Positions 9,328 through 14,017 of a stretch of 24,000 nt of DNA are shown here, one piece after another. Each line of letters begins with the position of its first letter. The stretch's first letter is position 1. Location: contig NC_014828.1 in assembly GCF_000178115.2 (NCBI RefSeq), positions 1,061,310 to 1,085,309 of the forward strand. Reading direction: 5' to 3'. The translations under genes were made by a program, and so were the position numbers. Under the pieces are notes generated by a model. That model was not told the DNA's origin, searched no databases, and saw only the letters and a program-made list of their open reading frames with translations. This DNA is from Ethanoligenens harbinense YUAN-3. Lineage in GTDB: Bacteria; Bacillota; Clostridia; Oscillospirales; Ethanoligenentaceae.

Positions 9328-9356
9328 TTGACAAATGCTGTGAGTACGCATATCAT
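9328..9356 (+). promoter_or_regulatory. Sigma-A-type promoter of the ars/hgc operon: TTGACA-17 nt-TATCAT.
   Basis: TTGACA at 9328-9333, a 17-nt spacer, TATCAT at 9351-9356, about 50 nt upstream of the arsR ATG. Possible operator elements follow: ATATAGA (9355-9361) / TCTATAT (9387-9393), and three ATCAT copies. Confidence 0.5.
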
Positions 9357-9406
9357 ATAGACATAAATAAATATCATTTACGATCATCTATATACAGGGA
9401 GCAAAT

Positions 9407-9748
9407 ATGGAAAATAATTACGCCGATGTCGCGCTGCTTTTTAAGGCGCTATCGGATGAAACCCGGTTGAAAATCATTGACAGGTTATCCTGCGGGGAGC
9501 TCTGCGCCTGCGATATTTTGAAGCATCTCAACATCACACAACCGACGCTTTCCTACCACATGAAAATGCTGTCCGAGTGCGGCATTGTCAATGCCAACCG
9601 GCAAGGCGCATGGATGCACTATACGCTCAATGTCGAGACAATGAAGCAGATTGCGGATTACTGGAGCCGCATTACGAGCGATAAGTCTGATTACATCTGC
9701 TACCAGTGTTGCGATGACTCGGAAGAAACCTGCAAATGTGCGAAATAG
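9407..9748 (+). CDS. arsR: ArsR/SmtB-family metalloregulator.
   Basis: ...LFKALSDETRLKIIDRLSCGELCACDILKHLNITQPTLSYHMKMLSECGIV... is the ArsR wHTH with the ELC.C As(III)-site-like motif. The Cys-rich C-terminus reads YICYQCCDDSEETCKCAK. An AGGGAG SD precedes the ATG. Confidence 0.85.
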   Translation: MENNYADVALLFKALSDETRLKIIDRLSCGELCACDILKHLNITQPTLSYHMKMLSECGIVNANRQGAWMHYTLNVETMKQIADYWSRITSDKSDYICYQCCDDSEETCKCAK

Positions 9749-9762
9749 TGAGAGGTATCAGG

Positions 9763-10880: not shown

Positions 10881-11177
10881 ATGATGAAACACCGGTATCT
10901 TCAAGATGTCGTGACGCTGAAGCTCGATGCCGATAAATGCACGGGCTGCGGAATGTGCGTAAATGTCTGCCCGCACAGCGTGTTTGAGCTTGACGACGGA
11001 AAGGCAAAAATCATAGACATCAATAGCTGCATGGAGTGCGGGGCCTGCGCAAAAAACTGTGCGTTTTCGGCCATTACCGTATCACCCGGCGTAGGATGCG
11101 CCGCTGCCATTATCAAAGGGATGTTGACCGGTTCCAAGCCGTCCTGTGACTGTTCCAGCGACGGAAACTGCTGCTAA
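10881..11177 (+). CDS. hgcB: HgcB, the 2x[4Fe-4S] ferredoxin partner of HgcA.
   Basis: Two CX2CX2CX3C motifs ([24 protein letters not shown]), an additional Cys at residue 73 (GVGCAAA) and a C-terminal ...DGNCC pair match the described HgcB signature. A GAGGTGA SD overlaps the hgcA stop. Confidence 0.85.
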
Positions 11178-11270
11178 ACGAATCGTTCTATGCGCTTGTC
11201 CATATTTGAGACATAGAAAAGCGTCTATTATATCGGGCTCTTTCGATTTATTTTAAGGAGGATTAGAGAA

Positions 11271-12353
11271 ATGGAAAAAGCGGGTGGTAGGCTTTCTTTT
11301 TTAGACCGCTTTCTGACACTGTGGATATTTTTAGCTATGGCAATCGGTGTGGCGGCGGGCAATTTTTTCCCCGGCGCGGCGGATGCCATCAATCAATTAA
11401 GCACCGGTACGACTTCATGGCCCATCGCAGTAGGGCTGATTCTAATGATGTACCCACCGCTGATTCGAGTAAAATACGAGGAAATCGGCAAGGTGGCAAA
11501 CAACAAAAAGGTGTTCGGCTTTTCTCTTTTGCAGAATTGGATTATCGGGCCAATCCTGATGTTCATTTTGGCTCTGATTTTCTTGCCGGATAAGCCGGAG
11601 TATGCCGTTGGCATCATTGTCATTGGACTTGCCCGCTGCATTGCAATGGTGATTATCTGGAACACGCTCGCGAAAGGCGATAATGAGTATGGCGCTGCCC
11701 TGGTGGCACTCAACGCCATCTTTCAAATCCTTCTTTACTCGGTCTACATCTGGCTGTTTATCACAGTGCTGCCGGGAATCCTTCATCTTTCATGGGGCGG
11801 GAAATCGGTGCATGTTTCGATTCTGGAAGTTGCCCGCAGCGTATTGACTTATCTCGGCATCCCGTTTGTTGCGGGTATTGTCACCCGCTTTGCCGTTATG
11901 CGCGCCAAAGGGAAGGAATGGCTGACCAAGACCTTTATTCCGAAAATCTCACCGCTCGCTCTGCTTGCGCTGCTCTATACCATCGTCATCATGTTTATGC
12001 TCAAAGGGCGTATGATTGTTGCCCTGCCGCTTGATGTGGTACGGATTGCGATTCCTCTGCTGATCTACTTCGTCCTGATGTTTTCCATCAGCTTCTTTAT
12101 TTCGTATAAGCGCGGTTTCAAATACGATCAGACAACGACGCTTTCCTTTACCGCTGCAAGCAACAACTTTGAGCTTGCCATCGCCGTATCGGTCGCGGTG
12201 TTTGGTATCAGCTCCGGTCAGGCGTTCGCCGCCGTCATCGGCCCACTGATCGAGGTGCCGGTCATGATCCTGCTTGTGCGGCTCGCGCTCTATTTGAAAG
12301 GCAAATGCTTTGATGAAAACGGACTGCCGAAAAAAGATGGGGGATCAAAATGA
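11271..12353 (+). CDS. acr3: Arsenite efflux permease, ACR3 family.
   Basis: [28 protein letters not shown]...[13 protein letters not shown]...[13 protein letters not shown]...CIAMVIIWN...[12 protein letters not shown]...[10 protein letters not shown] are typical Acr3/ArsB(ACR3) blocks. An AAGGAGG SD is present. Confidence 0.9.
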
Positions 12354-14017
12354 AAATCGTAATCGTCGGTTCCGTCGCGGCGGGAACATCGGCGGCGGCC
12401 AAGGCCAGAAGAAATACCGAGGACGCACAAATCACCATCTATGAAAAAGACAGCTACATATCCTATTCGGGGTGCGGGCTGCCGTACTTTGTGGGTGGGG
12501 AAACTTCCGACATCGGCAAGCTGACGCCTAGGGATGCGCGATGGTTTAAGGAACGGTACAACGTCGAGATAAAGACGGGCTGCGAGGTATTGACGGTTGA
12601 CTCCGCTCAGAAAACCCTATGTGTGCGAAACCTTATATCGGGTGAAGAATTTACGGATACGTACGACAGGCTGGTTTGGGCGACGGGTTCAAAGCCCTTC
12701 AAGCCGCAGCTTGACGGTATCGGCAGCAGGAACGTCTTTACCGTCAAGAATCCGCAAAACGCGGTGGATGTGGACGCCTGCATTGCCGAGCATCCGGCAA
12801 AAAAAGCCCTCATCATCGGTGGCGGATATATCGGCCTTGAAATGGCAGTGGCCTTGAAAGAGCGGCAGATGGGGGTAACCATCCTTGAATTGAGCAGTCA
12901 TGTCATGCCGCTGATGGACGACGAAATGGCCGCGATTCTGCAAAAATACATGACCGGGAAGGGCATTGACGTTCTGACATCGGCTAAAGTCACCGGTTTT
13001 CAGCATAGTAACGGGATGGCCCGGACGGTAATGGTCGAGGGGCATGAGCCTATCCCGGCAGACTTGTTTATATGGTCTGCCGGCATTAAACCCGAAGTAG
13101 AACTCGCAAAAACAATGGGCGTGAAGCTGGGCATTACCGGAGCCATTGAGGTTGATAACCGGATGCAGACCAACCTTCCCGATGTTTATGCCGTGGGCGA
13201 TTGCGCACAGGTCTATTCTCTTGTGACAGGCAGCCCCATGTACCGTCCGATGGGTTCCACGGCCAACAAGATGGGACGTATCGCCGGGGACGTCATCACC
13301 GGCGGCAGCCTGAAATTCAGAGGTGTGCTTGGAACGGGCATTTTCAAAGTATTCGGTCTTTCCGTTGCCATGACCGGCCTGACGGAAAAAGAGGCCCGGA
13401 AGTTCGGTTATGACATTGAAGTCATCCATAATATCAAGCCAAACGTGCCCGATTATTACCCCGGTTCCGCCGAAATGACCATCAAGGCGGTTGCAGACCG
13501 GAAGACCGAGAAACTGCTGGGCGTTCAAATCGTGGGCGGCGAAGGGGTTGACAAGCGGATCGACGTTTTTGTGACGGCGATCACCTACGGCGCAAGGGCT
13601 GGCGATCTCTTTCATCTTGACCTTGCCTATGCACCACCGTTTGCGACCACTAAAGACCCTGTGCTTTATACCGGCATGATACTGGATAACGCACTGAATC
13701 GCGGGCGCAGGATTATGACGACACATGAGCTGATTGAAAGAGAACAGGCCGGGGAAAAGATCACGATTATCGATGTCAGAAATAAAAAGGACAGAGACAG
13801 GGGGTTTATAGAGGGCTCGCTTCATATCCCGCTGCAAAAGATACGTTCCGAACTTGCCGGCTTTCACAAGGATGATCTGATCGTTGTCCACTGCAACAAA
13901 GGTGTATCGGGTAATGCAGCGCAGAACATTCTAATCAATAACGGGTTCAGGAACGTGTATAACCTGTCGGGTGGATATAAGCAGTACATCATCGAAAAGA
14001 ATCGTGAACGTAAATGA
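12350..14017 (+). CDS. Pyridine-nucleotide-disulfide oxidoreductase of the CoA-disulfide reductase / NADH-dependent persulfide reductase type, with a C-terminal rhodanese domain.
   Basis: [20 protein letters not shown] (FAD-binding fold), [11 protein letters not shown] (CoADR/Nox-type redox Cys), [12 protein letters not shown] (NAD(P)H site) and VYAVGDCA. The C-terminal rhodanese-like part reads [24 protein letters not shown]...[14 protein letters not shown]. The ATG overlaps the acr3 stop as ATGA. Confidence 0.85.

Follow-up and report, generated by a model that had tools for sequence, protein, structure and literature searches.

Introduction

The native role of HgcAB, the protein pair of mercury methylation, is a long-standing open question, and a link to arsenic is the main published lead. 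The genes acr3, arsC, arsM and arsR were reported to flank hgcAB (McDaniel et al. 2020, mSystems, Fig. 6, PMC7438021), and further hgcAB-ars clusters have been published by Gionfriddo et al. in 2020 and 2023. Among the confirmed methylators compiled by Zhang et al. 2023 (ISME Commun, PMC10349881), arsR is located no more than three open reading frames (ORFs) upstream of hgcA in 14 out of 31, and MarR is mentioned for two strains only. In this study, a 24,000-nt stretch of the Ethanoligenens harbinense YUAN-3 chromosome, here called the window, was analyzed, in which hgcA and hgcB are located between an arsR gene and an acr3 gene and are followed by a gene for a reductase-rhodanese fusion. All coordinates are positions in this window on the forward strand.

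The closest regulatory precedents are found in Pseudodesulfovibrio. In P. mercurii ND132, an ArsR-like regulator controls hgcAB and is arsenic-responsive (Gionfriddo et al., bioRxiv 10.1101/2022.10.17.512643); a first-pass annotation of the window had pointed to such a regulator upstream of hgcAB in this strain, in agreement with the published order arsR2-hgcA-hgcB. As in the window, an ArsR-family gene lies directly upstream in both ND132 and P. hydrargyri BerOc1, where it is co-transcribed with hgcAB and transcription is raised by arsenic. ArsR2 of ND132 has an unusual four-cysteine site (Cys47, Cys49, Cys86 and Cys88) and is also responsive to S-adenosylhomocysteine, whereas the window ArsR has the cysteine pattern of Firmicutes ars operons. 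Moreover, ND132 is without ars structural genes beside hgcAB, whereas in the window acr3 is part of the same predicted operon.

In the other published hgcAB-ars clusters, as in the window, hgcAB adjoins arsR, acr3/arsB, arsC or arsM, and nothing essential differs. Zhang et al. 2023 (PMC10349881, Fig. 4/S4, Table S11) already list the YUAN-3 locus, and their ArsR, HgcA and HgcB sequences are identical to those of the window. The hgcAB-ars arrangement and its hypothesis are thus already published, including for E. harbinense, and the arrangement described here is an instance of a published pattern and not a new kind of system. The view of the first-pass annotation that the link goes further here than was known does not stand, since the pattern was in print in 2020, the ND132 regulation in 2022/23 and the tabulated locus in 2023. 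The hgcAB-ars papers searched do not discuss the gene junctions of YUAN-3, its canonical As(III)-type cysteine triad, its conserved candidate operator or its reductase-rhodanese gene, all of which are described below.

Results

Layout of the predicted operon

Five co-directional genes behind a single promoter had been proposed for this locus, and all five are present in the ORF list with their translations, as is the promoter. The features are as follows.

9328-9356, + strand: sigma-70-type promoter, with -35 TTGACA (9328-9333), a 17-nt spacer and -10 TATCAT (9351-9356)
9355-9393: candidate ArsR operator, inverted repeat ATATAGA (9355-9361) / TCTATAT (9387-9393)
9407-9748, + strand: arsR, encoding a 113-aa ArsR/SmtB repressor
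9763-10872, + strand: hgcA, encoding a 369-aa corrinoid protein
10881-11177, + strand: hgcB, encoding a 98-aa 2x[4Fe-4S] ferredoxin
11178-11270, + strand: hgcB-acr3 spacer of 93 nt, with an AAGGAGG Shine-Dalgarno sequence 5' of acr3
11271-12353, + strand: acr3, encoding a 360-aa ACR3-family arsenite efflux permease
12350-14017, + strand: reductase-rhodanese fusion gene, encoding a 555-aa FAD/NAD(P)H pyridine-nucleotide-disulfide oxidoreductase with a C-terminal rhodanese domain
14097-14132, + strand: candidate operon terminator, an imperfect hairpin CCGGTGAAGGCATGCCTGACCGG, then CGCAGGA, then T6

The promoter TTGACA-17-TATCAT matches the consensus at 11 out of 12 positions and is the top site between 8600 and 14600 in the promoter scan. 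The tight junctions described earlier were likewise found: the arsR stop codon and the hgcA ATG are 14 nt apart, the Shine-Dalgarno sequence of hgcB (GAGGTGA) overlaps the hgcA stop codon in a junction of 8 nt, and acr3 and the reductase gene share 4 nt (-4) in an ATGA overlap. In the 93-nt spacer between hgcB and acr3 (11178-11270), where no convincing terminator had been seen by eye, the scan detects neither a terminator-like site nor a promoter-like site on the + strand, and the spacer folds no more stably than shuffled sequences (z = +1.05). At the sequence level, arsR and acr3 are co-directional genes with only hgcAB between them and with no intervening terminator. The first plausible stop for an operon transcript is the hairpin with its T6 run at 14097-14132, which is present in both the minimum free energy and the centroid folds, and which is weak and uncalled by the consensus scan. 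A single-operon architecture of the five genes is a well-supported prediction.

Neither arsC nor arsM is found within ~10 kb on either side of the operon (gene and Pfam list). The statement that the operon lacks arsC thus holds for the YUAN-3 locus, but not for its close relatives, which carry arsC, arsD or arsA after hgcAB. An identical HgcA and the same five genes are also present on the CP025287.1 chromosome and on many metagenome contigs.

Identity of HgcA and HgcB

Scores against NCBI curated models are given in bits versus the model cut-off. The 369-aa protein scores 487 versus 275 with the HgcA model NF040863, and the 98-aa protein scores 132 versus 99 with the HgcB model NF040864, in agreement with the first-pass assignments. 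HgcA stays under the cut-offs of both the HgcAB-like fusion model (206 versus 285) and the model for the gamma-subunit of CFeSP, the acetyl-CoA-pathway corrinoid protein (80 versus 306). The proposed cap-helix signature NVWCAAGK was located at residues 119-126, with Cys122 as its predicted cobalt-ligand cysteine, and all eight residues (N119, V120, W121, C122, A123, A124, G125 and K126) are invariant in an alignment with 20 homologues. The membrane domain that had been predicted is recognizable as ~5 hydrophobic segments within residues 215-369 in a Kyte-Doolittle scan, which is a crude measure. The HgcA N-terminus contains a CC motif (ECSCSSGCCGS), and represents the Cys-Cys version of the N-terminal CC/CU extension described by Haft and Gwadz. 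A longer hgcA ORF from the ATG at 9736 was considered and rejected, since all close homologues start at M-E-S/P-I-V and the public gene calls agree.

In HgcB, encoded directly 3' of hgcA, both expected cluster motifs are found in the translation (C20-x2-C23-x2-C26-x3-C30 and C50-x2-C53-x2-C56-x3-C60), together with Cys73 and a terminal CC. An alternative start at ATG 10884 would give a protein of 97 aa, as in the public gene calls. Judged by profile scores and motifs, hgcAB of the window is a genuine mercury-methylation gene pair. Mercury methylation by E. harbinense is said to have been measured by Gilmour and co-workers in 2013. Christensen et al. 2016 (PMC5038027) list YUAN-3 as hgcAB+, and the strain is also one of the 31 'experimentally confirmed Hg methylators' that Zhang et al. 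2023 (PMC10349881) analyzed.

ArsR and its candidate operator

The product of arsR matches the ArsR/SmtB model NF033788 of NCBIfam (94 versus 55 bits) and Pfam HTH_5, and carries the motif LSCGELCACD (Cys29, Cys33 and Cys35), with its cysteines clustered around ELCxCD as in As(III)-responsive ArsRs of the R773/pI258 type (alpha-3 site), as well as a Cys-rich C-terminal tail. Across 24 aligned regulators, comprising 20 encoded beside hgcAB and four of plain ars operons, Cys33 and Cys35 are invariant, while Cys29 and a C-terminal CIC motif are common to the window ArsR and the ars-operon ArsRs of Peptoclostridium (P. acidaminophilum), Listeria pLI100 and Staphylococcus saprophyticus. Among plasmid-encoded proteins, the nearest homologues (45-59% identity) are all ars-operon ArsRs, several of which are labelled As(III)-sensing by AMRFinder.

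The inverted repeat ATATAGA/TCTATAT at 9355-9393 overlaps the -10 hexamer and the transcript start, and has a conserved AATATCATT core between its arms. This pair occurs only once in the 24 kb, where 0.00 occurrences are expected (100 shuffles). L085 and L086, the two nearest relatives (loci used for comparison are given L numbers), have the repeat in the corresponding place, and in both the -35 and -10 hexamers are kept while the spacer between the hexamers has diverged. The half-sites recur as ATATAGAT-N4-ATCTATAT in the promoters of arsR1 and arsR2 of Listeria pLI100, and are also present in two further hgcAB-linked arsR promoters (L040 and L009). On this indirect evidence, the repeat is regarded as a candidate ArsR operator, at which the repressor is predicted to bind. 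The earlier prediction of metalloid-responsive control is judged well supported.

A different promoter pattern is shared by seven other hgcAB-linked arsR genes (L006, L010, L012, L014, L020, L022 and L088). It lies ~110 nt 5' of arsR and consists of TTGACA, then TTTTCGATTTGA, then CATATAAT, then CATATCGAA, then TAGATTTGAGG, which points to operons of this kind having a second type of operator.

Acr3 and the reductase-rhodanese fusion

Acr3 scores 436 versus 283 bits with TIGR00832 and matches Pfam SBF. Its translation contains the conserved RCIAM cysteine and the conserved LIEVPVM glutamate, which we take to be the catalytic residues of Acr3 in transmembrane segments TM4 and TM9, respectively.

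The fifth protein contains the Pfam domains Pyr_redox_2, Pyr_redox_dim and Rhodanese. It aligns over its full length with CoADR-RHD of Bacillus anthracis (3ICR, 366 bits) and CoA-persulfide reductase of Enterococcus faecalis (8A56, 357 bits), and also end to end with the NADH-dependent persulfide reductase Npsr of Shewanella (3NTA) and with 6PFZ. The scores with 3ICR, 8A56 and 3NTA span 350-366 bits. Both the N-terminal redox cysteine (SxxxCGLPY) and the rhodanese active-site cysteine align with those of the solved relatives. Because the protein nevertheless falls under the CoA-disulfide-reductase equivalog cut-offs (TIGR03385, 432 versus 579; NF007123, 382 versus 458), it was filed in the broader CoADR-RHD / CoA-persulfide reductase / Npsr group as a predicted member. 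The 3ICR, 8A56 and 3NTA enzymes come from sulfide-stress or sulfur-respiration contexts, in contrast to the ars-operon context of the window fusion.

The fusion was also considered as an Acr2/Cdc25-type arsenate reductase that replaces arsC. This was rejected, because its loop HCNKGVSG lacks HC(X)5R and has no Arg at +6; we presume it to be a six-residue sulfurtransferase-type rhodanese loop. Replacement of arsC is further disfavoured by homologues that coexist with arsC in S. saprophyticus and Fusibacter.

Full-length homologues of the fusion (49-54% identity) are present inside plasmid ars operons without hgcAB. In Listeria innocua pLI100 the order is arsR-arsD-arsR-arsA-arsB-arsB-oxidoreductase, and on an S. 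saprophyticus plasmid it is arsD-arsA-oxidoreductase-arsR-arsB-arsC, with start and stop codons of the oxidoreductase gene overlapping those of its neighbours. Ars operons with a reductase-rhodanese homologue are likewise found on a Niallia plasmid and on Enterococcus plasmids, and the literature records arsD-arsR-pno-acr3-arsC for Fusibacter sp. 3D3. These operons of Listeria, Enterococcus, Staphylococcus, Niallia and Fusibacter share with the window the LSCGE-CAC type of ArsR, an arsenite pump and the fusion in the same direction, often with overlapping stop/start codons, as well as the operator half-sites ATATAGA/TCTATAT. They differ in being without hgcAB and in that most carry arsD plus arsA and/or arsC. 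The fusion, as judged from these gene neighbourhoods, is a recurring ars-operon accessory of Firmicutes and not hgc-specific, and the window can therefore be read as a Firmicutes ars operon with hgcAB between regulator and pump. No description of an arsenic-resistance role for the fusion was found in the literature. CoADR-rhodanese-type genes were seen at 12350-14017 of the window and recur in L091 (5630-7303), L093 (5001-6644) and L094 (4995-6659).

Relatives and survey of hgcA loci

The closest relatives keep arsR-hgcA-hgcB and vary in what follows. L085 (HgcA 82% identity) has arsR-hgcA-hgcB-[IS110]-arsD-arsA-DGC-acr3-arsC, L086/L087 (73%) have arsR-hgcA-hgcB-arsD-acr3, and L088 from Anaerocolumna jejuensis (70%) has arsR-hgcA-hgcB-acr3(split)-arsC. 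In L088, a 98-aa ORF with no recorded Pfam match is followed, from its stop codon, by a 267-aa SBF-family (Acr3-type) ORF (2981-4080 together), which suggests a frameshifted or mis-called acr3.

To see how often hgcAB neighbours ars genes, a sample of 80 species-level hgcA loci among the matches listed was surveyed, with the closest relatives (L085-L088) outside the sample; all counts below refer to it. Neighbours were scored by tblastn and Pfam scans, and upstream neighbours were taken as same-strand ORFs within 600 nt of hgcA. An ars structural gene is contiguous with hgcAB in 13 out of 80 loci (~16%), in at least six gene orders. The loci with ars neighbours are listed below.

L002: arsR-hgcAB-acr3
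L010, L012, L014 and L034: arsR-hgcAB-acr3, with Acr3 of a second clade
L021: arsR-acr3-arsC-hgcAB
L028: arsR-acr3-hgcAB
L040: arsR-arsC-hgcAB
L005: arsR-hgcAB-arsC
L029: arsR-arsP-hgcAB-acr3
L017: arsR-reductase-hgcAB
L022: arsR-hgcAB-reductase-acr3
L035: second-clade Acr3-type gene directly upstream of hgcA, with arsR ~1.5 kb further up and an unannotated stretch between

ArsR is directly upstream of hgcA in 18 of the 77 loci with room for an upstream gene, and is the second commonest family there. Acr3/SBF is the commonest family directly downstream (6/68 loci) and the sole recurrent transporter family in that position, the others being nearly all singletons. The many gene orders, the two Acr3 clades and the two operator types among hgcAB-linked arsR promoters argue that ars operons have recruited hgcAB repeatedly and not through one accident.

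On the upstream side, a MarR-family regulator was observed directly before hgcA in ~21-23 of the 77 loci, slightly above ArsR, and a winged-helix regulator of some kind is immediately upstream in more than half of the hgcAB pairs.

DNA flanking the operon

The GC content of the window is 32-36% at 1-4000 and 6500-9000, compared with 47-59% in the operon and in the DNA downstream of it. The upstream flank encodes an MFS-PBP fusion, a Sua5/YrdC-like protein, an HMGL-like synthase and a LysR regulator, and an IS66-family element of ~50% GC (4093-6422) is embedded in it. By its composition, this low-GC flank looks like acquired DNA that abuts the operon. The LysR gene is separated from the arsR promoter by ~650 nt of non-coding DNA (8681-9327), the 3' part of which is GC-rich and hairpin-rich. 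A cobalamin riboswitch or other leader RNA in this stretch was rejected, as Rfam gave no match at gathering thresholds across the whole window and only chance-level matches at E <=1; nor was any tRNA or tmRNA found, and the stretch is not conserved in relatives.

Downstream, three large ORFs at 17482-19968 (- strand), 20329-21324 (+ strand) and 21896-23377 (+ strand) have no Pfam family. All three have signal-peptide-like N-termini and Ser/Thr/Gly-rich low-complexity sequence, two have C-terminal membrane anchors, and they presumably encode cell-surface proteins. A lone HMA (CopZ-like) gene (16954-17238, - strand) is located just downstream of the first of them. The 828-aa ORF beside this HMA gene was considered as a P-type ATPase and rejected, being a low-complexity surface protein with no Pfam match.

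Discussion

Proposed model and points against it

We consider it likely that the window holds a five-gene ars-type operon autoregulated by ArsR, in which promoter-proximal hgcAB is followed by Acr3 and then by a CoA-persulfide/disulfide-reductase-rhodanese fusion. Repressor binding, inducer and co-transcription are parts of this model that we infer from the sequence. ArsR dimers would bind the ATATAGA/TCTATAT repeat over the -10 hexamer and prevent transcription. Binding of As(III) or Sb(III) to the Cys29/Cys33/Cys35 site would release ArsR, and a single transcript from ~9360 to ~14130 would then be made. HgcA and HgcB would consequently be produced alongside the arsenite pump whenever the metalloid is present. 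The arsenic-responsive transcription of hgcAB under ArsR control in ND132 speaks for this model as well.

Several observations weigh against this model or limit its reach. The arms of the repeat are 25 nt apart in the window versus 4 nt in pLI100, so that the operator geometry is uncertain, and an internal promoter may lie before acr3. In L085, the nearest relative outside Ethanoligenens, hgcB is split from arsD by an IS110 transposase gene (11573-12811) that runs on the opposite strand, and strict co-transcription is therefore not always kept. Among solved structures, ArsR is matched best by CadC-type Cd/Pb sensors. As for an arsenic-detoxification role, ND132 forms no mono- or dimethylarsenicals, so that co-regulation need not mean detoxification, and its hgcAB deletion mutant has the same As(III) sensitivity as the wild type (bioRxiv 10.1101/2022.10.17.512643).

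Alternative readings

The CadC matches, which share the ELCxCD motif with the window ArsR, would fit a repressor that senses another signal, with the operon as a general thiol-stress module. In such a module ArsR would respond to Cd(II), Pb(II) or Hg(II) as CadC does, or to sulfane sulfur as BigR and SqrR do. The last gene is consistent with this, as it encodes an enzyme of the CoA-persulfide-reductase type, which in Enterococcus belongs to a sulfide-stress regulon; so is the additional response of ND132 ArsR2 to S-adenosylhomocysteine. We nonetheless find it improbable. ArsR is without the N-terminal cysteines of CadC and without the DxH...H..E alpha-5 metal site, it scores far under the cut-offs of the BigR, CmtR and other specific models, and its cysteine pattern matches that of ArsRs controlling ArsA, ArsB and Acr3 pumps. 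The pump of the operon is Acr3 and not of the CadA or MerA type. A CadC-type ArsR was accordingly dropped in favour of the arsenite-type repressor of the proposed model.

The neighbourhood of hgcAB and ars genes could also be functionless, if arsR-hgcAB were a small mobile cassette that lands in ars genes or drags them along, with acr3 and the reductase gene under a promoter of their own. The IS66 and IS110 elements near hgcAB loci, the anomalous GC content of the upstream flank, at 32-36% against 50-59% elsewhere, and the lack of ars neighbours at most hgcAB loci agree with this, as does the conservation between relatives, which starts exactly at the promoter and stops after hgcB. A single hitch-hiking event is, however, hard to reconcile with at least six gene orders, two Acr3 clades and two operator types, or with SBF/Acr3 as the sole recurrent transporter family downstream, and the 93-nt gap offers neither a promoter-like site on the + strand nor a terminator. 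We therefore regard a functionless adjacency as unlikely.

Finally, HgcAB might itself detoxify metalloids, as a corrinoid-dependent, S-adenosylmethionine (SAM)-independent methyltransferase for As(III)/Sb(III) that replaces ArsM and methylates Hg(II) only incidentally. ArsM in ars operons is likewise a methyltransferase under ArsR control beside an arsenical exporter, but HgcA, anchored in the membrane and paired with a ferredoxin, is a corrinoid protein that has no relation in sequence or chemistry to the SAM-dependent ArsM. Methanogens methylate As, Sb, Se and Te in a methylcobalamin-dependent way. The hgcAB pair also fills ars slots in many orders, following arsR, following arsC, or lying between arsP and acr3, from which selection on co-expression can be argued, and deletion of hgcAB makes ND132 more sensitive to As(V) (bioRxiv 10.1101/2022.10.17.512643). 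Against it stand the methylarsenical and As(III) results of ND132 given above, the low share (~16%) of surveyed loci in which hgcAB adjoins an ars structural gene, and upstream MarR-family regulators that are about as frequent as ArsR. We regard this role as unlikely. The same low probability is given, because of the negative ND132 data, to the broader idea that HgcAB of Clostridia is a working part of metalloid resistance. In that scheme it would act on As(III), Sb(III) or their thiol-bound forms, either as a methyltransferase driven by corrinoid and ferredoxin or as a modifying enzyme of another type, the product would exit via Acr3 or ArsP, the fusion would supply or recycle a thiol or sulfane-sulfur partner, and mercury methylation would be accidental.

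The suggestion that arsenic exposure turns on methylmercury formation loses strength, because the hgcAB transcript level in ND132 did not predict the methylation rate (bioRxiv 10.1101/2022.10.17.512643).

Significance

The YUAN-3 locus brings no new idea, but it shows the arrangement very cleanly, in a cultured organism that the literature counts among the confirmed methylators, with a canonical As(III)-type ArsR, a recognizable candidate operator, promoter-proximal hgcAB and a pump apparently on the same transcript. This may make E. harbinense better suited than ND132 to experimental tests, because the regulator of ND132 is atypical and no ars structural genes lie beside its hgcAB. The diversity of gene orders that link hgcAB with ars genes, and the reductase-rhodanese fusion as a widespread ars accessory, are side results of use to specialists. 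If HgcAB does act on metalloids, mercury methylation would be a chance by-product of an enzyme that detoxifies arsenic.

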